Shown here: in pieces, positions 7,030 through 41,312 of the stretch
Numbering within the stretch: the first letter of the stretch is position 1
Layout of the letters: each line of letters begins with the position of its first letter
Source: Candidatus Shapirobacteria bacterium
Lineage (GTDB): Bacteria; Patescibacteriota; Microgenomatia; UBA12405
Assembly (NCBI GenBank): GCA_041659325.1
Contig: JBAZYN010000004.1
Location: forward strand, 583-64,582
Direction of reading: 5' to 3'
Length of the DNA: 64,000 bases
Program-made: the position numbers and the translations under genes
The notes under the pieces: model-generated
Database searches by the model: none
Seen by the model: only the letters and a program-made list of their open reading frames with translations
What the model was told of the DNA's origin: nothing

Positions 7030-7503
7030 ATGAGCCAAAAGTCTGGGTTTACTCTCCTCGAGGTCACTATAGTTCTCGGTATCCTGGCTCTCCTCTTTTC
7101 CATTACCTCACTTAATTTAAGCAACACTGCTCCCAAAAGTTCACTCGACAATGCCGTCCAACTTTTAATCGCCAACATAAAAGAGCAGCAGCTTTATGCC
7201 CTCACCGGCAAAACCGAAGACCAAACTGGTACTAACTTTGGTATTTATTTTGGCCCCCAAAAATATACTCTTTTTCAGGGAAACACCTACGACGCCAATG
7301 ACCTATCCAACTATGATGTCCATCTTGACGACATCGACACGTCTTCAACCGCTACCGGTTCGGTTATAATTTTTACCAGAAACACCGGTGAAATCCAAAA
7401 TTTTCAACCCACAGGCAACACTATCACTTTAACCCAAACCAACATTCAACAATCAAAGACAATCACACTAAATAAATATGGCATTATCGAATCAATTTTC
7501 TAA
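7030..7503 (+). CDS. Pseudopilin / minor type IV pilin (GspH/FimT-like)
   Basis: Prepilin leader MSQKSG followed by FTLLEVTIVLGILALL (class III signal with Glu+5). Confidence 0.8.
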   Translation: MSQKSGFTLLEVTIVLGILALLFSITSLNLSNTAPKSSLDNAVQLLIANIKEQQLYALTGKTEDQTGTNFGIYFGPQKYTLFQGNTYDANDLSNYDVHLDDIDTSSTATGSVIIFTRNTGEIQNFQPTGNTITLTQTNIQQSKTITLNKYGIIESIF

Positions 7504-11423: not shown

Positions 11424-11906
11424 ATGAAACAAAAAATCTGCCAAAAAACCAACAAAAGAGGTTTCACCTTGATCGAGTTATTGGTCGTCATAGGTATCCT
11501 CGCTCTCTTGCTTGCCATTACTCTTATCGCTATCAACCCGGCCAAACAGTTCGCCCAAGCCAACGACACCAAGCGTAGTAGTGATGTCAATGCCATTTTA
11601 AATGCTCTCAACCAGTATGCCGCCGACAATCGGGGCCAGCTTCCCGCCGGTATCGGTGCCTCAGCCGTTTCCATTGGTTCTTCAGGGGTCAACCTCTGTG
11701 CCGATTTAGTCACCGAATATCTGGCCGCCCTCCCCACCGATCCGACTAGTGGTAATACCGCAGGAGAAGTCGGAGCTCCCGTAACTGTCTGTACTGCCGC
11801 CTATGATACCGGTTATGTAGTTTCCAGAAGCGCCGACAATAACCGTCTTACTGTTACTGCCACTAGCGAGGTCAACCCGACCATCCCGATTTCAGTCACT
11901 CGCTAA
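11424..11906 (+). CDS. pilA: Major type IV pilin PilA
   Basis: Canonical leader MKQKICQKTNKRG followed by FTLIELLVVIGILALLLAI. The protein is 160 aa. An intrinsic terminator follows. Confidence 0.9.
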   Translation: MKQKICQKTNKRGFTLIELLVVIGILALLLAITLIAINPAKQFAQANDTKRSSDVNAILNALNQYAADNRGQLPAGIGASAVSIGSSGVNLCADLVTEYLAALPTDPTSGNTAGEVGAPVTVCTAAYDTGYVVSRSADNNRLTVTATSEVNPTIPISVTR

Positions 11907-12506: not shown

Positions 12507-15260
12507 CTAAAAAGCTTTAATCTGTGCCAGGGCCGTTATCGAAAACAACATCAGTACCGACAGGGTAAAGGTGACAATCACAAAAAGCAAATAAAATACT
12601 TCAAAAATATTTACTTTCTTTCCGTTTTTCCATTTGTTCAGCTGATGATATATCCACACCGAAGACTCAAGCAAAAGTGCCGCGTACAAAATCCAGTCTT
12701 TCTTTTCTGGTTCAATCATCTCCGTTATTTCTACATTGCTCCCGGCCACTTGCCCGTCGGTTACGTTATCCGTTTTCTCCTCCGCCATAGCCGCCAGCAC
12801 TTTCCCGTATCGGCTCTTAACCCCAAATTCTGTCTCCGACCAGTTTGACATTAGCTTCTGGCCATTTTGGTCCAGGCCGTAAATTATTGTCCGGCTTCGA
12901 TATTGTCCTTCACTTGTTTTTATGGGTATTGGTATTCCAAAGTGTACTTTCCCGTGTCTGTTTCCTTTAATTTCACCCAAATCAATTTCTGCCCATCGAT
13001 AAAGTTCTCCGTATTGATCATATATCTCATGCCGCAGATATGTGTTGTATGCCGACACCGCCGCTCTGTTTTCTACTTCAATTTCAAAAGTCACCACATC
13101 ACCCGGGTATACAAATTCATTTACATTATTACCGACTTTTATTACCAATTCTGCCCTTCGGCTGTCCTGGTTCTTTGATCCTTCTGTTGTTACCTCCGCC
13201 GTCTCTTCTTGTCCCTCACTACTGTCAATTTGCTCATCAATATCCACCACCACCTCACCGTTTTGAACTACCAGAATTTTGCTTACCGCTACCGCTTGAT
13301 TGTTGCCGTTGTTCGTTTCCACCTGTCGGTTTCTCACTATCGCCCGCGCCTCCGCATCTATCAGTACCTCCGCTGCCAAAACCGGTCTTATAATTTTTTG
13401 CCACCAGGCTAATTCCTCATCAACTCCGGTGGCTACCTCTATCACAAAAGTTCCCCCCTCATTTCTCCCCAATTCACCCAATTGCCACTTTATCCTCCTC
13501 CCGCTGACAACCGGGTTCATCCCGCTGCCGTCTTTCACATACGCTGTTCCCTCCGGTAATACCAATTCCAGTTCGGTTCCCCTGGCTGTATCATACCCCA
13601 GATTTTTATAGCTCACCTGATAGGCCAGGCTCTCCCCCTGGCGAACTTCATTTTTCAATGCTATTAGCCCAACATCCATGTCCGGATAGGCAAATATCAC
13701 TCTCCCTCTCCAGCCCCCAATTATATTAATCAGGCCATAAAACCAATTGTTGCCCGAAATATTTACATTTACCAGATTATTTAAATTGGCAATCGCCGTT
13801 GCCTCTCCGGTTTTGATTGCTCCTGTGCCGCTTTGTTCAATTACATTGTTGCCGGTATCTGCCGATACCTTTATGTTGTTGTAAACCTGGGCGTCATTAC
13901 TATTGTAAATACCTAGATTTTCCCCTCCGATAGGGGATATCGCCCAGTTGCTAAAATCAGCCTCCGCTGTCATCCAATCGGTCGCCCCCGGCGCCGACCA
14001 GTTAACCACCTCCGTTTTTTCTCCTCCCCAATTGTTAATCGAAGCATAAAAATACCCATCACCGCTTATATTCATATCGGCTATAGTTGCGCTTTTTGCC
14101 AAAGCCATCGCCCCGCCGGTTTCTACCGTCCCCTGTGTTTCTGCTGATACGCTATTTCCCCCGGTGTTGGCTTCTGCCGTCACTTCATTTTTGATATTAC
14201 TTTGATTCTGGCTGCTGACCACCGCTCCCCCGGTACTTCCCCCTGCTCCAAACCAAGTCGGTGCCGGTAGGATCAGGTCAGCCAACAGGCTGCCGTTGAG
14301 GTTCATAATTCCAAAAAACACCTGATTGCCAAAAATATTCGTGTTAACCAGATTTATCACATTAGCCAAAGCCGTCGCCGATCCCGACATTATCACCGCC
14401 TCATCGGTTTCACCGATTACATTCATCCCCGTCCTGGCCATTACCGTCACCCAGTTTTCCACCGATGCTTGGTTAAAATTACACAAGCTCATCAATTGGC
14501 TGTTTCCCTCATTTACCGTCATCGGTTGGGCTGATAACTCCTGCCACATTTTATTCAAGTCCAAGTCTTTCTTTTCTCCCGAAAATATATTGTTGATATA
14601 AACGCCGATTTTTCCGCCCACAATATTGCTGTTGACCAGGTTGATTACATTGGCCACTGCCGTTGCCCCGCCGCTTTTTATTTCCGCCGATATCTCCGTT
14701 TTGATGACTTCATTTCCTCCGGTATCGGCGCTCGCTGTCGCTTCGTTAACCAAATCGGCTTTATTTTTATTTATTACCTGTTTTGGTATCACCACTACCA
14801 CTTCACCGCTTAAAGCTTTTGACGGTTCAATCAACGTATTTTCGTTTATTGTATTTTTCGAATCAGTCTCTGCCGACGCACTACTGGTATCAATCAATCC
14901 CGTTACCGCTTCCTCAATTGTATTTCCCCCCGTCTGGCTGTCCGCCGAAGTTTGCGCCGAAACCGACGCTTCATGTTCATTTACCACGATTTCCACCAGT
15001 TCCGGACTGGTTGTCCCTATGGTTGGGGTTGGCGTTGTTCCGTCGATTTCCGGTCCTGCTTCTGTTACGCCCACCCTTTCTGCCGTTACTTCCGGCGTTT
15101 CTGTCGGGGTTATTTCATCCGCTGCTTCCTTATTTTCCGATACCTGAGTTGAGCCCACTTCTAATGCCTCTGCCCAAACCGTCACAGGCACCAAAAGCTG
15201 ATTCAGCCAAAGCGAAAAAATCGCCAAACAATTAAAAATTTTTATATATCTTTTTTCCAT
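12507..15260 (-). CDS. Large secreted, C-terminally TM-anchored repeat protein with DUF11 (conserved repeat, TIGR01451-like) domains
   Basis: Signal peptide. At least four copies of an about 45-aa 'SADTGGNxV...TGxAxAxANxxNLVNxNIxG' repeat. Two DUF11-like segments. C-terminal TM helix plus KNGKK. Confidence 0.6.
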   Translation of the reverse strand: MEKRYIKIFNCLAIFSLWLNQLLVPVTVWAEALEVGSTQVSENKEAADEITPTETPEVTAERVGVTEAGPEIDGTTPTPTIGTTSPELVEIVVNEHEASVSAQTSADSQTGGNTIEEAVTGLIDTSSASAETDSKNTINENTLIEPSKALSGEVVVVIPKQVINKNKADLVNEATASADTGGNEVIKTEISAEIKSGGATAVANVINLVNSNIVGGKIGVYINNIFSGEKKDLDLNKMWQELSAQPMTVNEGNSQLMSLCNFNQASVENWVTVMARTGMNVIGETDEAVIMSGSATALANVINLVNTNIFGNQVFFGIMNLNGSLLADLILPAPTWFGAGGSTGGAVVSSQNQSNIKNEVTAEANTGGNSVSAETQGTVETGGAMALAKSATIADMNISGDGYFYASINNWGGEKTEVVNWSAPGATDWMTAEADFSNWAISPIGGENLGIYNSNDAQVYNNIKVSADTGNNVIEQSGTGAIKTGEATAIANLNNLVNVNISGNNWFYGLINIIGGWRGRVIFAYPDMDVGLIALKNEVRQGESLAYQVSYKNLGYDTARGTELELVLPEGTAYVKDGSGMNPVVSGRRIKWQLGELGRNEGGTFVIEVATGVDEELAWWQKIIRPVLAAEVLIDAEARAIVRNRQVETNNGNNQAVAVSKILVVQNGEVVVDIDEQIDSSEGQEETAEVTTEGSKNQDSRRAELVIKVGNNVNEFVYPGDVVTFEIEVENRAAVSAYNTYLRHEIYDQYGELYRWAEIDLGEIKGNRHGKVHFGIPIPIKTSEGQYRSRTIIYGLDQNGQKLMSNWSETEFGVKSRYGKVLAAMAEEKTDNVTDGQVAGSNVEITEMIEPEKKDWILYAALLLESSVWIYHQLNKWKNGKKVNIFEVFYLLFVIVTFTLSVLMLFSITALAQIKAF

Positions 15261-15319: not shown

Positions 15320-15910
15320 CTAGTTCAAATCATTGACTTGAGCGTTGACTACCACTGAACCTTCTGCAAGAGCATCAGCTCTACCGGTATAAAGGTAACC
15401 GTTTCCGCCTCGTACGGTTAATCGGTTATCACCTGAATCGGCATCTGCCTCAACCTCGCTATCCACCATTACCAGATTTACATCTATTTCACTGGCAGGT
15501 TGGTATCCTCCTCCGCATCGGTTTAGAGTATTGCATGGGCTAGTGCAGCCTTCGTCACAGCAGCCGTTTTCTTGTCGGCCGACGGTAACACCACCTCTGG
15601 CAGTTGCCCAAGCTTCACCGGTATCAATTATTCCGGTTACAACCACGGGTTCCTCTTCGGGTTCCTCATGACACCACGGCCCAAAACACGGCATTCTATT
15701 TGTTTCCCTGACTGGAGCGGGAGCGCCAATATTGACATTGTTATCGCCTGAATCGGCTTCTGCCTCCACCTCGCTTTCAATCAGGGTGACATTCGCATTG
15801 ATATCCGGGGTAACCCGGGTCATCCTGGATGGTCGTGTAAGAGCCGAAACTGGTACCGCCACGGCCAAAAGAACGGCCACTGCGGTTAAAGTTGCAATTG
15901 TTTTTTTCAT
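15320..15910 (-). CDS. Small secreted Cys-rich protein sharing the 'EVEA(E/D)ADSGDN' repeat with the upstream 917-aa protein
   Basis: Signal peptide MKKTIATLTAVAVLLAVAVPVSA. Two copies of the repeat flank a central segment with 8 Cys. Confidence 0.55.
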   Translation of the reverse strand: MKKTIATLTAVAVLLAVAVPVSALTRPSRMTRVTPDINANVTLIESEVEAEADSGDNNVNIGAPAPVRETNRMPCFGPWCHEEPEEEPVVVTGIIDTGEAWATARGGVTVGRQENGCCDEGCTSPCNTLNRCGGGYQPASEIDVNLVMVDSEVEADADSGDNRLTVRGGNGYLYTGRADALAEGSVVVNAQVNDLN

Positions 15911-17036: not shown

Positions 17037-18359
17037 ATGAAAAAAGATATTCTGTCGCTTCTATCTGTTTTCAGCCTCGCAGTTTTAACCCTTTCTTTTT
17101 CCCCGCCGATTTCTTTTGCCCAAAGTTATACTTCCCGTCAAAGAATTGGTGTCGGTGTCCACTCCCACACTCCCGTAGACTATCTCAATTGGTATGATTT
17201 TCAGGCTTATAATCTTGGTTGGTATTTTACCTGGAAGGGGACCAGTGATTTACCCAACCCTGGCAATATCGATGGAGTTGAATTTATGCCCACGTATTAC
17301 AATGGCAAATGCCCTCAGGCTTCTCTCGATCTGGTAAAAAATAACCCCACTGCCTATCCTTTTGGGACCACTTTTTTGATCGGCAACGAGCTTGGTATGA
17401 CCGAAATTCCCGATATGGCTGTTTATGCCCAGGATTACCGCAATTGTTATCTTGCTCTCAAAAATTTAAATCGAAATTACAAAGTTGTTTTGGGCGCCCT
17501 AACTTCGTCAAGTCGGATATATATGCTCGAAACCATCCGTTCCGAGTATAAAAAAAATTACGGCACTGATTTGCCAACGGACGGTTATCGGGTCAATGTC
17601 TATTTTGAAACTTTGGCCAGTGCCGTCACCAAAATGCGTAATTTTATGAAAAGTGTCGGCGATCAGGATAAGGACTTAATCATCACCGAATCATGCCATC
17701 CCGACAAAACCGAATCCGAAAATGTTGCCTACCTAAAGGAAGCTCTAAACTACACCACCACTACCAAAGATACCTCTATCGGCAAACCGTCCGATAATTA
17801 CATGCTGATCCAGCGCTTTGCCTGGTTTCTTATGAATAGTGCCGTCAACGGTTATTCCAGTTGTTCGCTTTACGATATCAATTTACATGCGGCTGCCTAT
17901 CCTCCCCTTAAAACCAAAAAGACTCAAGTTGGTTTGGCTTTCTCCGATTGGATGGCCAAAAACATCCCCCCGACTGCCTCCAGTCCCACTCCCACCAAAA
18001 AACCCACCCTGATTCCCACCCTTCGCCCCACTTCAACTACAATCCCAACTATCCGTCCGACTTCCACCTCAACTTCCCGCCCCACCTCAACTTCAATCCC
18101 GACCATCCGTCCCACTCCCACCCTCAAACCGACCTCCCTCCCTTCTGCCTCTCCCACCGTCTCCGTCTGTTCCAAAAAAGCCACCGGTGATGCCAACTGT
18201 GATGGTTTGGTAAACATCTTTGATTTTGGAATTTGGAAAGTAGACTTTATTGACTATCGCAGCGGTACCAAAAAAAATATTTGGGACTCAGATTTTGATG
18301 TCGATTCAAAAGTTTCTATCTATGATTTTTCTATCTGGAAACTGGGCTACGGTAAATAA
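17037..18359 (+). CDS. Secreted clan GH-A-like (TIM-barrel) glycoside hydrolase with Pro/Thr linker and C-terminal dockerin-like module
   Basis: Signal peptide. IGNELG (acid/base-like) and IITES (nucleophile-like). A PT-rich linker. Dockerin repeats DANCDGLVNIFDF and DFDVDSKVSIYDF. Confidence 0.5.
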   Translation: MKKDILSLLSVFSLAVLTLSFSPPISFAQSYTSRQRIGVGVHSHTPVDYLNWYDFQAYNLGWYFTWKGTSDLPNPGNIDGVEFMPTYYNGKCPQASLDLVKNNPTAYPFGTTFLIGNELGMTEIPDMAVYAQDYRNCYLALKNLNRNYKVVLGALTSSSRIYMLETIRSEYKKNYGTDLPTDGYRVNVYFETLASAVTKMRNFMKSVGDQDKDLIITESCHPDKTESENVAYLKEALNYTTTTKDTSIGKPSDNYMLIQRFAWFLMNSAVNGYSSCSLYDINLHAAAYPPLKTKKTQVGLAFSDWMAKNIPPTASSPTPTKKPTLIPTLRPTSTTIPTIRPTSTSTSRPTSTSIPTIRPTPTLKPTSLPSASPTVSVCSKKATGDANCDGLVNIFDFGIWKVDFIDYRSGTKKNIWDSDFDVDSKVSIYDFSIWKLGYGK

Positions 18360-18373
18360 AGGCAAATAATAAA

Positions 18374-18772
18374 ATGAAAAATAATAAATATATTTTTGTC
18401 GTCATTGCTTTCATGCTTTTGCTAACGGTGCTGATTTTTGCTCGTTATAATTATCAATTCCAAATATCAAAAAAACCGGGTCACCCGATTATCCCTCCTC
18501 CCGCACTTTCAGAAAGATGCGGTCTGCAAGACTGTCACGGGCTAGATGTTACCTGCGGTCCGGATGTCCCCGAAGTCTGCGACCTGATGTACCAAATAGG
18601 GGACAATTGTCGGCAATACGCGCTCTGCGGTAAAGTCAGCGGCGAATGCCGGCTACAAGCATCACCCAAATTTGATGCCTGTAAATCCTGTGTTCAAACT
18701 TGTGAGCAAAATTTCCAAAACACTTCAGATCCGGCAAAAGTATTCGAGTGCGAAAGCACCTGTTTTGAGTAG
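18374..18772 (+). CDS. Small secreted cysteine-rich protein (14 Cys)
   Basis: N-terminal TM/signal, then a C-rich domain with CxxC and CxxxC spacing. Confidence 0.5.
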   Translation: MKNNKYIFVVIAFMLLLTVLIFARYNYQFQISKKPGHPIIPPPALSERCGLQDCHGLDVTCGPDVPEVCDLMYQIGDNCRQYALCGKVSGECRLQASPKFDACKSCVQTCEQNFQNTSDPAKVFECESTCFE

Positions 18773-18934: not shown

Positions 18935-19019
18935 CCTTTTCGCCATCGTTCAAGATTTTACATTATTTTGTTATTTATCTTATATAAATCTTACAAAACA
19001 TATTGTAGAATACCTTGCC

Positions 19020-19025
19020 TATAAT
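19020..19025 (+). promoter_or_regulatory. -10 box TATAAT for the GT2 gene (short leader without SD)
   Basis: TATAAT lies 16 nt upstream of the ATG at 19042. Confidence 0.35.
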
Positions 19026-19041
19026 ATTATTTCAAAGCCAC

Positions 19042-20076
19042 ATGGCCACAAGCCGCCCCAAAATATCCGTGTTAATCCCTTGCTACAACGAGGGAAAATC
19101 GATCCGCGCCTGTGTTCAGTCTTGCCTTGATCAAACCCGACCATTCGATCAAATTCTTGTCGTCAACGATGGCAGTACCGACAATTCCGCCTCGGCTTTG
19201 AAAAAATTTGGCTCAAAAATCCAAGTTATCACTTTCGACAAGCCCTCGGGAAACAAAAGTTTCTGTCAGGAAAAAGGGCTAAAATACATTACAGGCGATA
19301 TTTTTGTCGCCACCGATGGCGATACAATTCTTGATAAAAACTTTGTTGAACTGATAAAAAATGATTTTGAAAACGAAAATGTCGCTGCCGTTGCTGGCTA
19401 TGTCAGGAGTATCCGCTACAACTGGTTGACTATGTGCCGAGCCTTTGACTATGTAATTGGCCAAAACATCCACAAACTCGCCCAAAAATATTTAGGTTAT
19501 ATTTTTGTCATTCCCGGCGCCGCCTCGGCTTTTAGGACTGAAATTTTTAGGGAATATATCAATTTTGATCACGATACCATTACCGAAGATCTCGATTTTA
19601 CCTATAAACTCCACAAAAACAATCTAAAAATTGCTTACGATAAAAAAGCAATCGTCTACACTCAGGATCCGGATACTCTTCGCTCATATATCGGTCAAAT
19701 GCGCCGTTGGTATGGTGGGGGCTGGCAAAATCTGGTTAAGCATCTCAACCAGGATGTGACCGAAAATCCGCGTATAGTCCTCGAGCTTTCCTTGATTTAC
19801 ATTGAAGGTCTGGTTTTTTCGATTCTTATTTTCATAGTTCCTCTGATAAATATACTTCTGGCTATTAAATTTTTCTTTTATTTATCAATCGTGGTCTTTA
19901 TAGAATCAATTTATGCCTCTTTCGTCGACAGAAGATCCGATTTGCTATTAGTCGTCTTTGTTTATCCTTTCATGATGTACATAAATAGCTTTGTCTCTCT
20001 GGAACAATTTATAAAAGAAGTCGTCCTTAAGCGGCGCAATTTAGTTTGGTATCATCCGGCCAGGAGGGAAATATGA
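19042..20076 (+). CDS. Processive family-2 glycosyltransferase (cellulose/chitin/PNAG-synthase-like) with C-terminal TM helices
   Basis: VLIPCYNE, VNDGSTDNS, DGDT, and the QMRRW (QxxRW) motif. C-terminal hydrophobic helices. The start is taken at the internal ATG; the ORF-track TTG is at 19015. Confidence 0.8.
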   Translation: MATSRPKISVLIPCYNEGKSIRACVQSCLDQTRPFDQILVVNDGSTDNSASALKKFGSKIQVITFDKPSGNKSFCQEKGLKYITGDIFVATDGDTILDKNFVELIKNDFENENVAAVAGYVRSIRYNWLTMCRAFDYVIGQNIHKLAQKYLGYIFVIPGAASAFRTEIFREYINFDHDTITEDLDFTYKLHKNNLKIAYDKKAIVYTQDPDTLRSYIGQMRRWYGGGWQNLVKHLNQDVTENPRIVLELSLIYIEGLVFSILIFIVPLINILLAIKFFFYLSIVVFIESIYASFVDRRSDLLLVVFVYPFMMYINSFVSLEQFIKEVVLKRRNLVWYHPARREI

Positions 20077-20182: not shown

Positions 20183-20683
20183 ATGAAAAAAATATTATCA
20201 CTTCTAACTTTTTTTTCAATTACTTCGGCAGTAGTCTTAAGTGCCGGCATCATTCTCAACCTCTGCATCAAAAACGAACCTAACACTGTCCTTATCGCCC
20301 GTTTCATTGAGTCCCATTCCTCAACCGCTATTGCCCTCGTTAGAAACGATTCGGAGAACTCCACTGTTTTGGGTTCGTCCGATATTCAAAAACAGGCCGA
20401 TAATTCCGGTCTAAATGTCTCCTATGGCCTGCCCCAGAGTGTTTCAGTTTCGCCGGCCATTTGGGTTTTTCGCTCCGGTTGCTTCCCCAAATATCCTTCC
20501 GGAAAAGAAATCCGCTCTCTTGTTGACTATCTGGCCATCAACAATATCGACTATTCTTTTGAAAACAGATACAAACTCGCCCGTGAAAATGGTATAACTA
20601 ACTATCAGGGTACTCCATATCAAAACTTATTTTTGATAACCAGTTTGTCCGGCCAATACCCAGCATGTCTCACATCAAATTAA
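20183..20683 (+). CDS. Secreted hypothetical protein
   Basis: Signal peptide MKKILSLLTFFSITSAVVLSA. No recognised domain. Confidence 0.4.
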   Translation: MKKILSLLTFFSITSAVVLSAGIILNLCIKNEPNTVLIARFIESHSSTAIALVRNDSENSTVLGSSDIQKQADNSGLNVSYGLPQSVSVSPAIWVFRSGCFPKYPSGKEIRSLVDYLAINNIDYSFENRYKLARENGITNYQGTPYQNLFLITSLSGQYPACLTSN

Positions 20684-23600
20684 ATTTTATAAAAATTTGT
20701 TTCTTACTTATAACCGCTCTGTTGTTGCGGTTTGGATTTTCGGAGCATGCCCTCGCCCAAACAGGAAACCTTATCGCCAACCCTTCGGTGGAAACAGCCA
20801 GTTCAACCGGAACCACTCCCCAGGATTGGTTTACTGACAAATGGGGGACAAATACGGCCGTCTTTAGCTACCCAGCCATGGGTTATTTGTCTGATCGGGC
20901 CGTCAAAGTTCAGCTGACCTCAAGATCAAGCGGCGATGCCAAGTGGTATTTCAAGGAAATTCCCGCTACTGCCAATACTAATTACACTTTTTCCGACTAC
21001 TATCAGTCAAACGTGGCCAGTGTCATTGTTGTTGCCACCAAGTTAACCACCGGTAGTTACAACTATCTTACTGTTGCCAACCTTGTCGCCGCCCCTGCCT
21101 GGACCAAAGCAAACGTCACTTTTAAAACACCGGCCAACACTTCCACCGTTACTGTTTATCATCTTATAAACAAAGTTGGTTGGCTAATTACCGACGAATT
21201 TTCTCTTATTTCTACTGTCTCTGTCACTCCCACCCCCACCCCCACTTTAGCTCCGACTCTGACCCCAACTTCTACCCCCACTTCCACCCCCACGATCACT
21301 TCCACGCCGACTCCAATAGTCACAATTATTCCCACCAACACCCCCACCCCCACTGCCACGGCTGTCCCTACGTCTACCTCCACCCCCATTCCGACAGCCA
21401 CTATCGCTCCCACCAACACTCCCACCCCTACCCCCACTCCTGTTACCAATCCTGTTTTGAATCCTTCACTCGAGCAAAACCGACCGACAAACACGAATTT
21501 ACCTATTAATTGGACAAAAGAGAAATGGGGGTCATCCAATACTACCTTTACCTACCTAAAAACCTCCGGCCACACCGGTACCCGATCCATAAAAGTCCAA
21601 ACCACCAGATACACTTCCGGTGATGCCAAGTGGACTTTTGATCCGGTTGCGGTCACCCCGGGCGAGTCCTATTATTTTTCCGACTGGTATCAATCAAATA
21701 TTGTCACCCACCTTGTCGTCAGGTTTACCCTGGCAAACGGCTCATATAGCTATCTCGGCCTTCGGGATGCCCCAATTTCTGCCGCCTGGGCCGAATACAA
21801 AGAGGCTTTTACGGTACCTGTTGGGGTTAAAGCCCTTTCGGTACTTCATTTTATAGACAGGGTCGGCTGGCTGATAACCGACGATTATTCGCTTCAAAAA
21901 TTTACCTCCTCCGGCTATGGGTTACCCCTGGTTTCTTTAACTTTTGACGATGGTTGGGAAGACAACACCCTTACTGCCATGCCACTTTTAAAACAAAACC
22001 AAATTCCGGTAACTTATTATTTTGCCACCACTTTTCTAGTCAATAGCCCCGCAACTGGCGCCATAAATGTCTCCGGTCCATCAGCTGTAAACTATATCTA
22101 CTCCGAGGGTCACGAAATCGGCTCCCATTCTGTTACTCACCCTGATCTAACCACCCTCACCTCTGCCCAAATCATCGCTGAAATCACCGATTCCAAAAAT
22201 TATCTGGAAAACCTTGTGGGTGTTGGCAAGGTTACTAGCTTTGCCACCCCCTTTGGTGCCTACAATGACACTGTTATCACTTCTCTTAAATCATCACTCT
22301 ATCGTAGCCACCGCACCACCGATGAGGGACCAAATACTCCCGAAAATTACGACCGCTATCGTTTAAAGGTTCAAAATCTTCAATCCACCACTACTTTATC
22401 TGAATTCCAAAGCTGGGTTGACCAGGCTGTCGCCGACAAATCCTGGCTGATTCTGGTTTATCATCGAATTGCTTCCTCCGACCTTACTCAATACGACACC
22501 AGTCTGACCGACTTTAATAACCATCTTTCATATCTCAAACAATCCGGAGTCGTCTTTAAAACGGTCAGCCAGGCAATCGACAGTATTGAAAATGTTGTTC
22601 CCACCGTCACAACTACTATTGCTCCCACTTCAACCAATACTCCAATCCCCACATCAACTTCCATTCCCACCGCCACTCCCACCTCGATCATCACCCCCAC
22701 CCCAACCACCGACCCGGCCCCCACCTCTACTCCGCTTCCCGTCTATCCCACGCCGACATATTTCCCGCAGCCGACAGCCGGCCCCAATCTAATCCTCAAC
22801 AATTCCCTCGAAATAGGCGATACTCTTAACTCCTCCCTGCCGGATAAGTGGCAAAAAAATAACTGGGGGACAAATACTACCGTCTTTACCTATCCAGTCC
22901 CAGCTATTGATGGCTCTGCCGCCGCCAAGACCGAAATTACCTCATTCACCGATGGTGATGGCAAATGGTATTTTAGTGATGTTGCCGTTACTCCCAACAC
23001 CGTTTATCAGTTTTCCGATCAATACCAATCAAACATTTCCTCCCGTATTACCGTCCGCTATTTTCATGATGACGGCACCTATACTTACGTTGATATCGGT
23101 AATGTGGTCGCTTCCGCCGATTGGTCCACTTTTACCGGCGAAATCACTATTCCTACCGATGTCCATTCGATTACCGTCTTTCACCTGATTGAAAGTATCG
23201 GCTGGATTATCACCGACAATTATTCTCTTCGTCAAAAAGCCGCTCCAATCCCTTTCAGCCAGGGGATGGTTTCCTTAACTTTTGACGACGGTTGGCTCTC
23301 AGTTTATCAAAATGCTATTCCCGCCCTCAATGCCGCCGGTTTTAAAAGTACTCAATATATCACCACTAGCTTTTTGGGGACTACCGATTATATGAGCGTC
23401 GACAACGTTTTGGCCATGCAGATTTCTGGCCACGAAATCGCTAGTCACTCCCTCAGTCATCTCCAACTGCCCACCCTAAACGAGTCTCAAATCCGTCAAG
23501 AGGTTTCCGACTCCCGAGTGACTCTCCTTGGCATGGGCTTTTCTCTGGTCAAATCATTTGCTTATCCGTACGGTGAATATAATGATCTAATTCTTCGCAT

Positions 23601-23916
23601 CACCAAGGAATCCGGCTATACCACTGCCCGCACCGCCGTCCCCTTCGATTCGGGATACAACTATAAACATACCGACCCTTTCATGCTCAAAAACTTTTCC
23701 GTAGAAGTCGATACCACCCTCGACCAAGTCAAAACTTGGATAGATACCGCCAACCAAAACAAGACCTGGTCAATTCTGGTTTTCCATCAGGTGGATACCA
23801 GTGGCGGCCAGTATTCTATCAGCCCAACCTTGCTCCAAGGTATTGTCGATTATCTTACCCAAACCGGTACCAGTGTTGTTACCGTCAGCCAAGGCCTTGG
23901 CCAAATGCTCAATTGA
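20665..23916 (+). CDS. Secreted multidomain polysaccharide deacetylase: three CBM-like beta-sandwich modules plus two NodB (CE4) deacetylase domains, joined by Pro/Thr linkers
   Basis: Signal peptide. A repeated 'NPSxE...WxxxKWGTNTxVFTY...GDAKWYF...YQSN...HLI..VGWLITD' module (x3). LTFDDGW and HEI(G/A)SHS(V/L)(T/S)H motifs (x2). PT-rich linkers at about 21230-21450 and 22600-22760. Confidence 0.8.
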   Translation: MSHIKLNFIKICFLLITALLLRFGFSEHALAQTGNLIANPSVETASSTGTTPQDWFTDKWGTNTAVFSYPAMGYLSDRAVKVQLTSRSSGDAKWYFKEIPATANTNYTFSDYYQSNVASVIVVATKLTTGSYNYLTVANLVAAPAWTKANVTFKTPANTSTVTVYHLINKVGWLITDEFSLISTVSVTPTPTPTLAPTLTPTSTPTSTPTITSTPTPIVTIIPTNTPTPTATAVPTSTSTPIPTATIAPTNTPTPTPTPVTNPVLNPSLEQNRPTNTNLPINWTKEKWGSSNTTFTYLKTSGHTGTRSIKVQTTRYTSGDAKWTFDPVAVTPGESYYFSDWYQSNIVTHLVVRFTLANGSYSYLGLRDAPISAAWAEYKEAFTVPVGVKALSVLHFIDRVGWLITDDYSLQKFTSSGYGLPLVSLTFDDGWEDNTLTAMPLLKQNQIPVTYYFATTFLVNSPATGAINVSGPSAVNYIYSEGHEIGSHSVTHPDLTTLTSAQIIAEITDSKNYLENLVGVGKVTSFATPFGAYNDTVITSLKSSLYRSHRTTDEGPNTPENYDRYRLKVQNLQSTTTLSEFQSWVDQAVADKSWLILVYHRIASSDLTQYDTSLTDFNNHLSYLKQSGVVFKTVSQAIDSIENVVPTVTTTIAPTSTNTPIPTSTSIPTATPTSIITPTPTTDPAPTSTPLPVYPTPTYFPQPTAGPNLILNNSLEIGDTLNSSLPDKWQKNNWGTNTTVFTYPVPAIDGSAAAKTEITSFTDGDGKWYFSDVAVTPNTVYQFSDQYQSNISSRITVRYFHDDGTYTYVDIGNVVASADWSTFTGEITIPTDVHSITVFHLIESIGWIITDNYSLRQKAAPIPFSQGMVSLTFDDGWLSVYQNAIPALNAAGFKSTQYITTSFLGTTDYMSVDNVLAMQISGHEIASHSLSHLQLPTLNESQIRQEVSDSRVTLLGMGFSLVKSFAYPYGEYNDLILRITKESGYTTARTAVPFDSGYNYKHTDPFMLKNFSVEVDTTLDQVKTWIDTANQNKTWSILVFHQVDTSGGQYSISPTLLQGIVDYLTQTGTSVVTVSQGLGQMLN

Positions 23917-24979
23917 GGATACTTTTAAACGCCTCCAAAGAATTTGTGTCAGACCACACCCGCCAATCCTTTTCTTTGTTTTCATTAAACCAAATAAAGC
24001 CCTGTACTTTTGGGTGTTTATAAATTTCTTTCCCCAAACCTTCTTTAATCCAGTTTGCCTTTTCCTGTCCGTCGGCACACGCCATAGAAAAAATCATTAT
24101 TGGTTTATCCAGGGTTTCCAGGGTTTCAAGCCCGTCGTTAAACACTCTCGCAAAGCTGACCCAGGGGTTATCAAAATTAAACCCGTTGATACCCAAAATA
24201 TCAACCGCTTCGTTCCCCGGATAAAAGTCCATAATCCGGTTACCATCCACCTCGGGGCTTGATTCACCATTGACCGCCCAGCCAAATTTTACGTTATTTA
24301 TGCCCCCAAAAAATTTTTTTACGTATCTGTAGGCCGCAATATGTTTGGCCGCCGAATTGCCATTTTTTGTCCCCGACCACGGGTACCAATCTCCATTCAT
24401 TTCTTCAAACGGAATCAGGATAACTTCCCCTCCAAAGTTTTTGGTCTGTTTTGCAAAGTCAGCAATATATTTATCCCAGTCGCCTCTCAAAATTGCATCG
24501 TAATTATATTTCGGGTCTTCGGTTGTCTCCTTGTTGTAGTCCATTGCTTCCCAAAAAAGCACCAATGTTTTCCCGCGGCTTTTTGTAAAATTTCCCAAGT
24601 CAAGGGGCAGTTCATTTTCATTTCCCCAGTGGACAAATGTGGCCACAAAATCCATTTGTTTTCCTACTTTAGATTCAAAATTATTCACTTCTTCCACTTG
24701 CCACCCGGTATAGGCACCCCACTTTAGCTTACTTTTATAAATCGTCTTTGTCGGAGCCAATGTTGCTGTCGCTACCACTACAGTTGTGGGTAAAACCGTT
24801 GGGATTATGGTAGCTTCTGTTACCTCTTCCGTCGGTACCGGGGTTGGCAAAGGCAACTGATCGGTTTTTTTTGGGCTTTTCCTCATATAACCGATTATCA
24901 ATAGAAATATTACCAAACCAACGGCAAAAAATGCTGATAATATCTGCCTCTTTCTGCTCATGCAGTTATTATACCGCAT
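23909..24979 (-). CDS. Secreted GH26-like glycoside hydrolase (beta-mannanase-like family)
   Basis: N-terminal TM/signal, a PT linker, the catalytic-acid context IPFEEMNGDWYPW (GH26 'HE.N..W' signature) and a WGAY motif. Confidence 0.55.
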   Translation of the reverse strand: MRYNNCMSRKRQILSAFFAVGLVIFLLIIGYMRKSPKKTDQLPLPTPVPTEEVTEATIIPTVLPTTVVVATATLAPTKTIYKSKLKWGAYTGWQVEEVNNFESKVGKQMDFVATFVHWGNENELPLDLGNFTKSRGKTLVLFWEAMDYNKETTEDPKYNYDAILRGDWDKYIADFAKQTKNFGGEVILIPFEEMNGDWYPWSGTKNGNSAAKHIAAYRYVKKFFGGINNVKFGWAVNGESSPEVDGNRIMDFYPGNEAVDILGINGFNFDNPWVSFARVFNDGLETLETLDKPIMIFSMACADGQEKANWIKEGLGKEIYKHPKVQGFIWFNENKEKDWRVWSDTNSLEAFKSILN

Positions 24980-25048: not shown

Positions 25049-26266
25049 GTGGAAAAAGCAAAAACAAGATTCCGCTCCTTTTGGCTACCGGTTTTCGGGG
25101 TATTTATGTTACTGGCAACTTTCTGGCTATCGCTGTCCAAAATTTATCAAAAACTTCAAAACCTTCAAAATACAAATACAGATCTGAATCAACAGATATT
25201 AGTTAACAATCAACAAATTGCCAAAAACAATGAAACCGCTAAAAATATTCAGGCGGAAAACGAAACGTTAAAAAATGAGGACCTTCGCCAAACAAACGGC
25301 AGTGTCAAAAAAGAAATTCAAGATTTGAAAACCAGTTTCAAAACCACCCTGACCTCGTACGAAGAAATTCTCGATCTACAAGATCGCGGATCAAAAATAA
25401 CTTCCCTCCAAAGTAAATTTTCCTCAGTCCTCAGCTTTTTGGCCAAAGATGACCTCGCTTCGGCTCAAAAAACAGCAACTGAGCTATCGGCAGAAATTAC
25501 CAAAGAAAAAACAAAATTAGCCTCTCTTGCCGCCGCTCCTATTCCGGCCAATGTTCCGGAAATTAACCAAGCTCCCGCTTCCGGGTATCGGAGGCAAAAA
25601 GTAACCATTGGTGACTCCTCGTATATGGTAAGCATTGTCTCGGCGGATCTCAATAGTACCAAAGTAATCGTCGACACTGCCTCAGATGGCACCTGCGCCA
25701 ACAACTGTCCTGTTTTGCCTCTGGCCACTTACGTCAGCCGCAGTGGCGCCTATGCCGGTATCAACGGCAGTTATTTTTGCCCCGAAACTTATCCTTCCTG
25801 CGCCGACAAGAAAAATTCATTTGACACCCTACTAATGAACAAAAATAAGGTCTATTTCAATTCCGACAACAATGTTTACAGCACCGTTCCGGTCGCCATA
25901 TTTTCCGGTAATTCCGGCAGGTTTATCGGCCAGTCTTCCGGATGGGGGCGAGATACCGGGGCCGATGCTGTGATTGCCAATCGGCCTCTTTTGGTTTTAG
26001 ATGGGAACATCATGTTTGGCGGTGGCAGCGACCAAAAAGAATCAGCCAAAGGTAATAGAAGTTTTCTGGGATCATCAGGCAATATTGGTTATATTGGGGT
26101 TGTCCATAATTCCACCGTCGCCGAATGTGCCAAAGTTTTACAGGCGATGGGCATAAAAAATGCCATCAATCTGGATTCCGGTGGCTCCACCGCCCTCTGG
26201 CATGGTGGTTACAAATTAGGCCCCGGCCGCAATCTTCCCAATGTCGTTCTGTTCGTGAAAAAGTAG
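25049..26266 (+). CDS. Membrane-anchored phosphodiester glycosidase (NAGPA/DUF2233) family protein with coiled-coil region
   Basis: N-terminal TM, a Q/N-rich coiled coil, AGINGSYF, RPLLVLDG, and the C-terminal NLDSGGSTAL (NAGPA 'NLDGGGSS') motif. Confidence 0.65.
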   Translation: MEKAKTRFRSFWLPVFGVFMLLATFWLSLSKIYQKLQNLQNTNTDLNQQILVNNQQIAKNNETAKNIQAENETLKNEDLRQTNGSVKKEIQDLKTSFKTTLTSYEEILDLQDRGSKITSLQSKFSSVLSFLAKDDLASAQKTATELSAEITKEKTKLASLAAAPIPANVPEINQAPASGYRRQKVTIGDSSYMVSIVSADLNSTKVIVDTASDGTCANNCPVLPLATYVSRSGAYAGINGSYFCPETYPSCADKKNSFDTLLMNKNKVYFNSDNNVYSTVPVAIFSGNSGRFIGQSSGWGRDTGADAVIANRPLLVLDGNIMFGGGSDQKESAKGNRSFLGSSGNIGYIGVVHNSTVAECAKVLQAMGIKNAINLDSGGSTALWHGGYKLGPGRNLPNVVLFVKK

Positions 26267-34254: not shown

Positions 34255-37032
34255 GTGGTGAAAAAGATCATCTTTTTTCTATTCCTGTGGCTTGGGTCAA
34301 CTTCTGATTTACAGGCCGCCGACCTCCAAAGCACCTATCTTCGTCTGGACAGAAACAAAACCGGTCTTAGCCCCGGAAAAGTCTTGGTAGTCACCAAAAC
34401 AACTTCATCGGCTACCGAAGATGGTGTCAGAATTACCGTCGGCACCGGTTGGACTATTAACACTAATGCTTCTGCTTTTTCAGTTTCTACCATAAATTTA
34501 CCCGAAGGAGTTTCTGCCTGGCCGGGGATAGACACTGCTGTCGCGGTCAACGGCCAAGCAATCACTTTTCCCGGTGTCGACCTGGCTCCGGGCGAATTTT
34601 ATGGCTTCTATATTACCGGTGGAATAGGCGTAAACGGCCAGGTTAGCAGCAGCAACTATGTTTGGGAGGTTGCCACTTTAAGCGGTGGATTAGCCGACGG
34701 TACCATAGAGGTTGGGGTGCCGGTTGTGGCCGCTGATTCAATCACGGTAACTGGAACTGTTCCCGCCAATCCCTCAGATTATCCGGTCAGTATTTCCTCG
34801 GACCTTACCGGAAACGCGTCACAAAACCAGACACTCAACTATCAGATAGATTATGGTTCTTTATCTGCCGCCATTACCAAACCTCTGACCATAAAAGCCG
34901 AGTGGAGTCGTGGTACTCTGGAGAACTTTCCTATCCCGACTCTGGATATACTTGATTATGTAATCGGTAGCGGTACCAGTGCTTACAATGGGGTAGAGCC
35001 GGTAATAGATCTGATTGACCGGACAATTACCTGGACAATTCCCGATTTCCCGACAAACACTTTAGGTCAGACTGTTAGTTTCAGTCTGCAGACAAACGAT
35101 CAATATACCGGTTCCAGCCTAGTTAATTTCGATGTCAGTGTCACCGTCACTGCCGGTAACATCACGGTTGCTACCGACACAATAAACCAATATTATCAAT
35201 ACAATCCGCCATATTTATCACCAACTCCGACCCCGACCTCAATCCCCACTCCCACTTCTGTTTCCACTCCGGCTCCGACCTCTACCTCCACTCCCGCAAT
35301 TACTCTCGCTCCCGGTATTCCCACGGCCACGTCCGCCCCTGCAGCAACCTCGACTCCGGTTCAAGGCCCGACTCCCACCCCAAAACCTTTTAGGGAAAAG
35401 CTCAAAATAGAGAAAGTAGAAATAATAAATTTGTCCTCAAACGAGGCTGGAATCAGGGTAGCTACCAATATCCCTCTTGATAAATTAATTTTGACATATG
35501 GTTTAACTCCGAAAAAAATTACTCAAAAAATTATATTTTTAAAGCCGGATAATTTCGAAATATTTTTACTAACCAACCTTAATCCCCAAAACCTATATTA
35601 TTTTCGTTTGGAAGCACAAGCCGATACCGATAGATTGTTTTCGGATATTTTTACTTTCAAAACTCCCGCCGTTTCTGATCTTCCCGAAGTTGTAAAATCC
35701 ACTCTACTAGCGAATAGTGACGGTAAGGTTTTATATGACGCCGCCAGAATAGACAAAGAAATCAATGATTATTTGGTAATTATTCCCAAAGCGGTTGAAT
35801 ATTCTATTCAATTCCAGGTCGATAAACACGATTTGGTAAAGCAGGCTACCCTGATATTAAAAAGCCGCCAGGTTTTGGGGATTAGTAGCGCCTATGGAGC
35901 GGAACCCGCCAGTAGTTTAACTGATTTAATCGAAATTAGACCCGGTTGGTTCATGGGAAGACTTTTAAGTCCTTCAGAAGTAAGCTTCTATGAAATGTCC
36001 GTCAGACTGTCGGGTATCAACGGCACCATAATAGAAAACAAGTTGGCCGACATGGAAATAATCGAGCCGATGCGAATTTTGGAGTTGGAATCCCTTGCTC
36101 CCATTGAATCCGCCAAAGTCGAAATTAGTTTGTATAATTCAAAAGAAAAAAGGTTTTTAATAATCCCCCCAAACACTCTGTTGTCAGAAAATCCCGTATT
36201 TTCAGAAACAGACGGTGAAGTGGCTTTGGTTCTGCCAAGGGGTAAATATCGGGCCAAAGTCACTGCTTTGGGTTATTCAGAAAAACAAACCGAGTTTGAA
36301 ATTAGCGCTGGTGGCGATTTAAAGCTACCGTCAATTTATCTAGAAAAAGACAAATTTAATTTATTGGTAGTTGGCAGATATTACTCTGGTACTTTCACAG
36401 ATGTTTGGCAATATTGTAAAAACAACCTGAAATATCTATTTTCCTCCGGAAGATTTTTCAATCTAGTCGCCCTGATAAACTTGATTCTGCTGGTTATTAA
36501 TACCACTATATTTTATAGAAATAGCCTAAAAACTAACATTTTCGGAGGCAAAAACCGCGACGACTATATAGATGGAAAAATAAATGTCTCTGGAGCCGAT
36601 ATCATTCTGATTGATGCTGAAGCCAGTAGGATCCTGGCCAAAACCAAAAGCAATTGGTTGGGGCGCTTCCGTTTCAAGCTCAAACCGGCCAAAAGATATA
36701 AGTTGTCTGCCTCCAAAAGCGGATACGAGACTTCCCCGTTCTTTGAATATGTTGGCGATGAGGGAATTTTAGCAGGCGATATTAAAATCAATCTGAAAAG
36801 ATCAGAAGACAAACAAAAACTCAAATATATCCTCAACGAGTGGTTCTACTGGGAAATTTCAGATTTATCTACGGGGGTTTTAAACATTTCAGTCTTGTTG
36901 GTCGAAATACTTTTTATTAATAAATTCGGTTGGTCGGCAACCGCTATATGGATATTAATTGGTATATTAAATTTAATCTTGTGGTTAGTTTATACTTACA
37001 GAAATGGCAATAAAGTGGTGGCAAAACCTTAA
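34255..37032 (+). CDS. Large surface protein (925 aa): signal peptide, N-domain shared with the 38138 protein, PT linker, CarboxypepD_reg-like domain, C-terminal TM helices
   Basis: The N-terminus LRLDRNKTGLSPGKVLVVTKTTSSATEDGVRITVG is homologous to the 38138 protein. PT linker at about 35220-35400. GKINVSGADIILID...GYETS fold. Two C-terminal hydrophobic helices. Confidence 0.6.
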   Translation: MVKKIIFFLFLWLGSTSDLQAADLQSTYLRLDRNKTGLSPGKVLVVTKTTSSATEDGVRITVGTGWTINTNASAFSVSTINLPEGVSAWPGIDTAVAVNGQAITFPGVDLAPGEFYGFYITGGIGVNGQVSSSNYVWEVATLSGGLADGTIEVGVPVVAADSITVTGTVPANPSDYPVSISSDLTGNASQNQTLNYQIDYGSLSAAITKPLTIKAEWSRGTLENFPIPTLDILDYVIGSGTSAYNGVEPVIDLIDRTITWTIPDFPTNTLGQTVSFSLQTNDQYTGSSLVNFDVSVTVTAGNITVATDTINQYYQYNPPYLSPTPTPTSIPTPTSVSTPAPTSTSTPAITLAPGIPTATSAPAATSTPVQGPTPTPKPFREKLKIEKVEIINLSSNEAGIRVATNIPLDKLILTYGLTPKKITQKIIFLKPDNFEIFLLTNLNPQNLYYFRLEAQADTDRLFSDIFTFKTPAVSDLPEVVKSTLLANSDGKVLYDAARIDKEINDYLVIIPKAVEYSIQFQVDKHDLVKQATLILKSRQVLGISSAYGAEPASSLTDLIEIRPGWFMGRLLSPSEVSFYEMSVRLSGINGTIIENKLADMEIIEPMRILELESLAPIESAKVEISLYNSKEKRFLIIPPNTLLSENPVFSETDGEVALVLPRGKYRAKVTALGYSEKQTEFEISAGGDLKLPSIYLEKDKFNLLVVGRYYSGTFTDVWQYCKNNLKYLFSSGRFFNLVALINLILLVINTTIFYRNSLKTNIFGGKNRDDYIDGKINVSGADIILIDAEASRILAKTKSNWLGRFRFKLKPAKRYKLSASKSGYETSPFFEYVGDEGILAGDIKINLKRSEDKQKLKYILNEWFYWEISDLSTGVLNISVLLVEILFINKFGWSATAIWILIGILNLILWLVYTYRNGNKVVAKP

Positions 37033-38071: not shown

Positions 38072-38137
38072 CAACTATCGCTTGACAAGATAGTCTAAAT
38101 AGCTCATATTTATACTTAGAAACGAGTTTATCAAACA

Positions 38138-39157: not shown

Positions 39158-39185
39158 ATAAATCTCCGGGGATTAATATATAATC

Positions 39186-41194: not shown

Positions 41195-41312
41195 AAAAAT
41201 CGCTAACTATCGCCATATTTATAATATTTGAATTTGATATCTAAAGATATCTTTTAAATAGACATCGTTTTCACTATAGTACACAGTAAGGGCTGTTATA
41301 TCGGGCCTAGTC

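Follow-up and report, generated by a model that had tools for sequence, protein, structure and literature searches.

The locus and its dockerin module

The gene studied here lies in a 64 kb stretch (64,000 nucleotides, called the window below) of contig JBAZYN010000004.1 from Candidatus Shapirobacteria bacterium, a member of the Patescibacteria/CPR (Microgenomates), and it encodes a secreted-type enzyme that ends in a dockerin. The product of this open reading frame (ORF) is 100% identical to MFA5828828.1 (WC841_05745, Candidatus Shapirobacteria bacterium), which is annotated as "hypothetical protein". It is composed of a signal peptide, a catalytic domain, a linker rich in proline and threonine (PT) and the dockerin (Table 1). 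The first-pass annotation of this DNA had placed two dockerin repeats after a PT-rich linker at the C-terminus, and this description holds, with both peptides, DANCDGLVNIFD and DFDVDSKVSIYD, in frame in the ORF. The linker has 67 residues, 70% of which are Pro, Thr or Ser (16, 19 and 12, respectively). By inspection, the signal peptide has a basic n-region, a hydrophobic core and a cleavage-like site between SFA and Q, and is devoid of a lipobox Cys.

Table 1. Window coordinates of the dockerin gene, of the features it encodes and of the gene that follows it (AF2, AlphaFold2; pLDDT, predicted local distance difference test)
Feature	Residues and remarks	Position	Strand	Basis
ORF	440 aa; stop codon 18357-18359	17037-18359	+	
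Sec-type signal peptide	M1 to about A28, MKKDILSLLSVFSLAVLTLSFSPPISFA followed by QS	17037..17120	+	read from sequence, by inspection
Catalytic domain, divergent Glyco_hydro_cc / GH128-like (beta/alpha)8, clan GH-A	29-310	17121..17966	+	profiles, AF2 and Foldseek
Putative acid/base Glu	N117-E118 in IGNELG, clan GH-A NE motif	17385..17390	+	putative role
Putative catalytic nucleophile	E218 in LIITES	17688..17690	+	putative role
Pro/Thr/Ser-rich linker	311-377	17967..18167	+	composition; AF2 pLDDT <50 over 313-376
Dockerin, Patescibacteria GDANCDG..N..DF.IWK subtype	C378-K440, 63 residues	18168..18356	+	profile, AF2, Foldseek
Cys proposed as disulfide partner of C388 (N-terminal clasp onto loop 1)	C378	18168..18170	+	covariation only
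Calcium-binding loop 1	D385-D396 (D385 A N387 C D389 G L V N393 I F D396)	18189..18224	+	motif scan
Cys at position 4 of loop 1	C388	18198..18200	+	alignment, covariation
Calcium-binding loop 2	D419-D430 (D419 F D421 V D423 S K V S427 I Y D430)	18291..18326	+	motif scan
132-aa protein	N-terminal hydrophobic helix, 12-Cys ectodomain	18374-18772	+	14 bp after the dockerin gene; no Pfam family

We have very little doubt that the C-terminal module is a true dockerin on an enzyme of clan GH-A. All the calcium ligand positions (1, 3, 5, 9 and 12) are filled, by D, N, D, N and D in loop 1 and by D, D, D, S and D in loop 2, and each loop is followed by a helix in the AF2 model (residues 394-408 and 428-439). 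Our profile of the module (alignment A1) was built from 13 relatives, drawn from proteins that share only the C-terminal module with the window protein. In this alignment G384, D385, N387, D389 and D396 of loop 1 are invariant, as is D430 of loop 2, with D419 conserved in at least 90% of the sequences; in alignment A6, D419 and D430 are both invariant. A relaxed form of the 12-residue loop motif, run over the six frames of the window, gives two matches only, 34 residues apart and in this same ORF, so that chance is not a credible explanation.

Searched against the Protein Data Bank (PDB), the A1 profile finds the solved type I dockerins 1daq (CelS; E=2.8e-10), 2mte (3.6e-10), 2y3n_B (1.4e-9) and 1ohz_B (6.3e-9), and also 4fl4, with alignments spanning both repeats (profile positions 10-70 of 71). 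The dockerin modelled alone with AF2 has a pLDDT of 88.8 and a predicted template modelling score of 0.75, and the same region has a pLDDT of 87-94 in the full-length model. With this model as the query, 16 of 16 Foldseek matches in the PDB are dockerins, the best being 2y3n_B (template modelling score, TM, 0.64/0.74; root-mean-square deviation 2.4 A; 30% identity). Their E-values are weak (at least 0.16, none at or below 0.001), as expected for a domain of about 60 residues.

The check proposed in the first-pass annotation, a search with the Pfam Dockerin_1 (PF00404) hidden Markov model (HMM), gave a divided answer. The calcium ligand positions are all in place, but the isolated module scores 18.7 bits (E=0.002), below the gathering score of 22.9, and the whole protein scores 14.4 bits, which by this measure alone is a borderline result. 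We did not let the sub-threshold score overrule the positive profile and fold tests; it reflects the limited sensitivity of the model and not a lack of homology. The same score would favour a chance pair of EF-hand-like motifs or a generic EF-hand pair, as would the weak matches of the A1 profile to EF-hand proteins (SCaMC-1, E=3e-4; troponin C, 0.06-0.2), but solved dockerins outscore these proteins (1e-10 versus 3e-4 or weaker) and align across both repeats, the structural matches are dockerins exclusively, the motif is unique within the window, and the location of the module, at the C-terminal end of a secreted enzyme and behind a PT linker, is classic for a dockerin, which leaves this explanation next to no chance and effectively refutes it already.

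As for the catalytic domain, it is a GH128-like glycosidase of clan GH-A, in line with the "clan-A-like hydrolase" named in the first-pass annotation. A profile of 21 family sequences, taken from the representative search, matches the GH128 structure 6uax (E=9.7e-8) and, nearly equally, the GH39 structure 6yyh (E=8.7e-7). The Pfam family PF11790 (Glyco_hydro_cc) is matched by 13 of these 21 aligned sequences; its score is 23.9 bits (cut-off 21) for the 62%-identical orthologue P0002 and 40.8 bits for the 36%-identical homologue P0003. Foldseek with the AF2 model places GH128 beta-1,3-glucanases at the top (6uav, E=8.5e-7, then 6ubc, 6ub7 and 6ufz; TM, by target length, 0.59-0.62), with GH53 and GH10 next in rank. 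An exhaustive search returned 708 family representatives at E<=1e-3, of which about five (representatives at the 50% identity level: P0002-P0004, P0097, P0098) form the close subfamily. Narrower searches added little: phmmer with the whole protein against the PDB returned only noise from the PT linker, a catalytic profile of 4 sequences had no match in the PDB, and a metagenome scan with the catalytic alignment returned, besides one fragment, only contigs found before (those of P0002 and P0003), with no added synteny.

N117 and E118 are invariant in the alignment of the 21 sequences (A4, where they are N94 and E95 of the cut sequence; adding 23 gives the full-length number). E218 (E195 of A4) is invariant too, and its column matches the "tEf"/"ItEf" of GH128 and GH39 in the PDB profile alignments. 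From what is known of clan GH-A, N117-E118 is presumably the acid/base site. The invariance of these residues fits the acid/base and nucleophile expected of a retaining clan GH-A enzyme, which in that clan follow strands 4 and 7 of the barrel, respectively. The best profile and structural matches, the GH128 beta-1,3-glucanases of PF11790 (PDB 6UAQ-6UBC series), have in common with the window enzyme the (beta/alpha)8 fold of the clan and both active-site motifs, NE for the acid/base and ITE for the nucleophile. In contrast, the window enzyme is only 12-19% identical to the solved structures and misses the Pfam model itself.

The tail of this enzyme is variable among homologues. P0003 (contig SDBU01006212.1, L004 6960-8768) has no dockerin; its PT-rich linker runs to about 250 residues and leads to a membrane helix at the C-terminus, while the C-termini of the family members P0121, P0123, P0145, P0224 and P0113 are dockerin-like. 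This swapping of tails supports anchoring as the common role of the C-terminus. Separately, P0004 was seen to carry a Cys-rich module at the C-terminus in place of the dockerin.

A dockerin subtype of Patescibacteria

By homology and fold, the window module belongs to the known dockerin family, with the peculiarities of a subfamily. It shares with the clostridial type I dockerins (C. thermocellum Cel48S/CelS, 1DAQ/2MTE; Xyn10B, 1OHZ) the tandem arrangement of two roughly 22-residue segments, each made of a 12-residue calcium loop and a helix, the same five ligand positions, the near-symmetry of the repeats, the position at the C-terminal end of a secreted glycosidase, behind a PT linker, and the fold (TM 0.5-0.74; profile E=2.8e-10). 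A contrasting picture is seen at loop positions 10-11, where Ile-Phe and Ile-Tyr occupy the sites of the Ser-Thr recognition pair of the C. thermocellum dockerins. The window module also differs from these in the aromatic DF.IWK signature of its helix, in a Cys at loop position 4 that pairs statistically with one upstream, in its sub-threshold Pfam score and in its host, a reduced-genome Shapirobacterium. To judge by its residues, it would act like a type I dockerin.

The subtype can be written as C-x(5-9)-G-D-A-N-C-D-G-x-V-[ND]-x-x-D-F-x-I-W-[KR]-x-E-[FY] for repeat 1 and [AS]-D-F-[ND]-x-D-G-x-V-x-x-x-D-F-x-I-W-[KR] for repeat 2. Its members closest to the window module mostly stay under the Dockerin_1 cut-off, at about 14-22.6 bits, with few above it (e.g. 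L015, 26.4), and scores lying just below the cut-off explain the "hypothetical" annotation. The named matches of the A1 profile come from Levybacteria, Parcubacteria and "Patescibacteria group", and some of them are already called "dockerin type I repeat-containing protein".

This dockerin subtype is common in Patescibacteria, where varied and unrelated hydrolases carry it. We found it on a metallophosphatase, a subtilase of family S8, a Spherulin4-like protein (PF12138), a GxGYxYP glycosidase, an M4 thermolysin and a protein with a faint, sub-threshold GH43 match. There are also tiny proteins that consist of a signal peptide plus a dockerin (P0029, P0035, P0037).

Across 93 non-redundant dockerins, the modules of proteins P0001-P0096 and of related loci, a Cys at position 4 of the calcium loop covaries with a Cys within 16 residues upstream of loop 1 (odds ratio 5.6; Fisher p=2e-4, with kinship ignored). 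The counts at the two places are equal (2/2, 1/1 or 0/0) in 61 of the 93. This covariation suggests a disulfide clasp between C378 and C388, with one or two such clasps across the subtype. A clasp in the ScaA dockerin is treated in PMC3821032.

These results change the annotation of the window gene from "hypothetical protein" to a secreted-type GH128-like glycosidase with a dockerin tag. Furthermore, the Pfam model under-calls the whole Patescibacteria subtype, and surveys that apply Pfam or dbCAN thresholds under-count dockerins there.

Cohesins in the window and in related genomes

The first-pass annotation saw no cohesin in the window, and neither did we with more sensitive methods. Pfam PF00963 (Cohesin) has no match among the roughly 51 window proteins. 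A lineage-specific cohesin HMM, built from the cohesins that accompany this dockerin subtype and iterated to 35 domains, has none among the 441 six-frame segments of the window (best E about 0.2). In hhalign, the cohesin profile reaches a probability of at most 3.4% with any window segment of at least 90 aa, compared with 67-98% for positive controls. The earlier suggestion that an unrecognised partner might hide among the neighbouring secreted proteins thus has a negative answer at the sequence level. No LPxTG protein was found in the window, and a Logan contig that reaches 5,056 bp past its 3' end has no cohesin. A cohesin profile of 4 sequences, run against a set of 5.8 billion proteins, gave 2 matches, with no named protein of the same genome (WC841_) among them.

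A scaffoldin, a CBM3 and a further dockerin are likewise missing from the 64 kb of the window, and the adjacent GH26 and CE4/CBM4_9 proteins are free of dockerins in the Pfam scan. This setting is not a cellulosome, and the non-cellulosomal context that the first-pass annotation had offered as one possibility is what we see.

A different picture emerges in related genomes. GTDB representative genomes were scanned with four close dockerins (alignment A7), which gave 41 loci, none of them from the window's own genome. The best 27 of the 41 are of the Patescibacteria type and form the sample for the cohesin counts below. By label, 13 are Daviesbacteria, Roizmanbacteria, Shapirobacteria, Saccharibacteria, Saccharimonadia or "Patescibacteria group", 2 are only "bacterium", and the other 12 come from TPA metagenome-assembled genomes (MAGs) under the unverified label "uncultured Gammaproteobacteria" (L005-L007, L012, L013, L015, L016, L019, L023-L026). 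These 12 all have the same dockerin subtype, and most have it in clusters homologous to those of the Patescibacteria-labelled loci; the label may be a placeholder or an error, and we treat it with caution.

In 16 of the 27 loci (L006-L013, L017-L021, L023, L024, L026), between 1 and 5 cohesin ORFs share the strand of the dockerin match and are no more than about 5 kb away from it, often 26-171 bp downstream. Examples of such clusters are L008 5181-10704, L017 1-3092, L020 3-3575 and L018 1-10018. PF00963 is matched by 14 of 17 cohesin domains (best E=2.4e-10), and the profile built from them matches solved cohesins (5m2s_A, E=8e-6); by these matches, the cohesins of the related loci are bona fide. 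The dockerins next to them belong to the same subtype, at 39-48% identity. An unrecognised cohesin-like partner, which the first-pass annotation had derived from the isolation of the window dockerin, is thus not needed, since cohesins that Pfam recognises adjoin the same subtype in related Patescibacteria.

The operons follow a common plan, with 1-4 dockerin-tagged proteins, then an adaptor of about 400 aa with a cohesin and a dockerin (COH-DOC), and lastly a pair of cohesin proteins, each about 205-260 aa long. In L008, L017, L018, L019 and L020 the final cohesin protein ends with LPxTG, a hydrophobic helix and a basic tail, which is a sortase signal, while other cohesin proteins of the related loci have a membrane helix at the N-terminus. 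Each cohesin protein of the Patescibacteria loci contains one, rarely two, cohesin domains. One protein, P0011, joins two cohesins and this dockerin subtype in a single chain. In the Saccharibacteria MAG CAZVIJ01, the cohesin-dockerin cluster is on L018, and on a separate contig (L028) there is a dockerin gene that has no cohesin closer than 8 kb. This layout is a precedent for an unclustered cargo gene, as in the window.

Sortase-anchored cohesin systems exist elsewhere, with ScaE of Ruminococcus flavefaciens as an example. The related Patescibacteria loci resemble it in ending with a cohesin protein that bears LPxTG, a membrane helix and a basic tail, and they combine COH-DOC adaptors and several dockerin-bearing enzymes in one operon. 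They differ in that their cohesin proteins are limited to one, rarely two, domains and in that the cargo is varied (protease, glycosidases, proteins without assigned function) instead of cellulases; the window has none of these components.

Our literature searches, with incomplete coverage, found no paper on cohesin-dockerin operons or on sortase-anchored cohesins in Patescibacteria, and a cohesin-dockerin surface-display system in this group, seen here outside the window, is apparently undescribed. We tentatively propose, with confidence slightly short of an even balance, that such a system is minimal and conserved in the Patescibacteria (candidate phyla radiation), with a distinct dockerin subtype, marked by a Cys clasp and an aromatic helix and largely missed by Pfam, and with the window enzyme as dispersed cargo. 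It may comprise dockerin-tagged hydrolases, COH-DOC adaptors and small cohesins fixed by an N-terminal helix or by LPxTG. The operons of the relatives matter more here than the window gene itself, as they combine this type of dockerin with Pfam-confirmed cohesins, some of them sortase-anchored. If true, this would offer a concrete, testable mechanism for the retention of hydrolytic enzymes at the surface of ultra-small, host-dependent bacteria, and cohesin-dockerin assembly would extend well past the fibre-degrading Firmicutes. A metabolically dependent cell would then carry a changeable set of degradative enzymes, possibly aimed at polysaccharides of the host or the environment.

Possible roles of the window dockerin and other genes of the window

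On balance, we favour a secreted GH128-like enzyme that is tethered by its dockerin to a cohesin encoded elsewhere in the same genome. The enzyme would be a retaining glycosidase of clan GH-A, with E118 as acid/base and E218 as nucleophile, exported by the Sec route. The dockerin would fold around two Ca2+ ions, possibly stapled by the C378-C388 disulfide, and would plug into a cohesin anchored at the surface by a membrane helix or by sortase. Tethered in this way, the enzyme would stay at the surface of its ultra-small cell, where it could cleave a polysaccharide of the beta-glucan type from the environment or from a host cell. As cohesins adjoin the same dockerin subtype in relatives, a normal cohesin elsewhere in the genome is the simplest reading, and the window dockerin is probably an ordinary surface-tethering tag. 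By analogy with the related operons, we lean, with modest confidence, towards the binding of a cohesin of the same organism.

Several results weigh against this interpretation. Of the 70 kb contig (70,022 bp), about 69 kb (the 64 kb window and 5 kb on its 3' side) encode no cohesin. L022 (3.5 kb), the one further locus from Shapirobacteria that was retrieved, has none either, and the same is seen in 11 of the 27 related loci, though many of these are on short contigs. On the side of the enzyme, the Pfam/NCBIfam scan of the window protein gives no significant match to a GH family, including PF11790, and for the dockerin, too, the protein's own Pfam score is below threshold. The AF2 model has a pLDDT below 50 for residues 21-71, so the N-terminal third of the catalytic model is poor and the barrel is confident only in part. 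The substrate specificity is based solely on distant similarity to GH128 (12-19% identity). Lastly, dockerins without cohesins are common in many organisms, according to PMC10066038, which cites Peer et al. 2009.

These points lead to the strongest of the alternatives, in which the dockerin works independently of cohesin, as a Ca2+-dependent stabilising or adhesive tail that binds glycan, cell wall or host surface directly. The literature on non-cellulosomal dockerin-like modules dates back to Peer, Smith, Bayer, Lamed & Borovok 2009 (FEMS Microbiol Lett 291:1), and PMC10066038, which cites this work, describes them as possible adhesins. Like those modules, the window dockerin is part of a protein that is not cellulolytic, its organism makes no cellulosome, and no cohesin is evident locally. 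The difference is that Patescibacteria have recognisable cohesins clustered with this subtype, so a cohesin partner is likelier here than for many "orphan" dockerins.

A second case comes from Southlakia epibionticum (Saccharibacteria), whose SEML1_0315 is a dockerin-domain envelope protein, essential in a transposon screen and suggested to act on or bind host glycans, with no cohesin partner mentioned (PMC10633639). Both are dockerin-bearing proteins of Patescibacteria, a likeness that lies in their descriptions. The stand-alone proteins made of a signal peptide and a dockerin also agree with a tail of this kind. Against it, the same subtype adjoins cohesins in 16 of the 27 related loci, and both repeats of the window module keep the I[FY]DF.IWK face common to the cluster-linked dockerins. 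To our knowledge, direct glycan binding has not been established for any dockerin. We therefore regard a cohesin-independent role as unlikely, with perhaps a minor share of our confidence, and continue to prefer tethering to a cohesin.

A partner of another kind could be encoded next door, by the gene for the membrane-anchored 132-aa protein or for another unannotated secreted neighbour. The 132-aa gene is on the same strand after a gap of only 14 bp, with no terminator-like site on the + strand between the two. It is probably co-transcribed with the dockerin gene, and its product, which has no Pfam family, combines an N-terminal hydrophobic helix with a Cys-rich ectodomain. The scan for promoters and terminators around the dockerin gene was indistinguishable from shuffled controls. 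No homologue of this neighbour turned up among the retrieved proteins or in any of the 41 loci with related dockerins, its gene is not conserved on the P0002 and P0003 contigs, HMM and hhalign give no cohesin-like signal, and its Cys-rich domain of 90 residues is unlike the jelly-roll of a cohesin. A non-cohesin receptor in the neighbourhood is thus improbable, and as a recurrent partner the 132-aa protein was rejected, being absent next to the orthologues P0002 and P0003 as well as from the 41 loci.

Docking across species, to the cohesin of a host or neighbour organism, would attach the enzyme or the small cell itself. The contig lacks a cohesin, many Patescibacteria live as epibionts (PMC10633639), and weaker relatives of the dockerin pattern occur in MAGs of Planctomycetes, Bacteroidales and Bacillota, but the idea is pure speculation, and self-assembly is simpler, as related Patescibacteria own cohesins beside their dockerin genes; we consider it very improbable. 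In the resulting order, the cohesin-independent role is first by some way, then the non-cohesin neighbour, then cross-species docking, with the EF-hand pair discussed above in last place.

Finally, the surroundings of the dockerin gene are rich in envelope and carbohydrate genes. These encode a DUF11 surface protein, a GT2 (19015-20076), a double CE4 protein with CBM4_9, a GH26 (23909-24979, - strand) and an NAGPA-like phosphodiester glycosidase (25049-26266). The CE4 protein is secreted, with 1083 aa (20665-23916, + strand), and is composed of two CE4 polysaccharide deacetylase domains, three CBM4_9-like modules and PT linkers. The DUF11 protein (917 aa; 12507-15260, - strand) has a repeat in common with a secreted protein of 196 aa (15320-15910, - strand), "A[DE]ADSGDN / ADTGGN ... 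ANV.NLVN.NI", and this repeat family is possibly a surface-layer or fibre protein.

Farther along the window, five consecutive ORFs (355-437 aa, 37004-42626), none of them matched by Pfam, come before the gene for a giant protein of 3140 aa (42512-51934, + strand) whose domains include DUF2341, right-handed beta-helix/NosD and Gly_rich_2. Genes of a type IV pilus or type II secretion system (T2SS) are found at 72-2557, 7030-7503 and 11424-11906, with the ATPase T2SSE, the platform protein T2SSF and two pilin-like proteins that have the N-terminal methylation motif. About 5 kb past the 3' end of the window (L049 7765-10839), a secreted protein of more than 1000 aa (truncated) has a PT-rich N-terminus and Cys-Asp repeats ("CDG.DNDCD" / "D.DGDG") with no match to the dockerin HMM.

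In terms of composition, GC skew is negative in nearly all 2-kb bins (to -0.31) and the cumulative skew falls steadily. Most window genes are on the + strand despite this negative skew, so the coding strand is C-rich, in part because of the PT linkers with their ACC- and CCC-rich codons.

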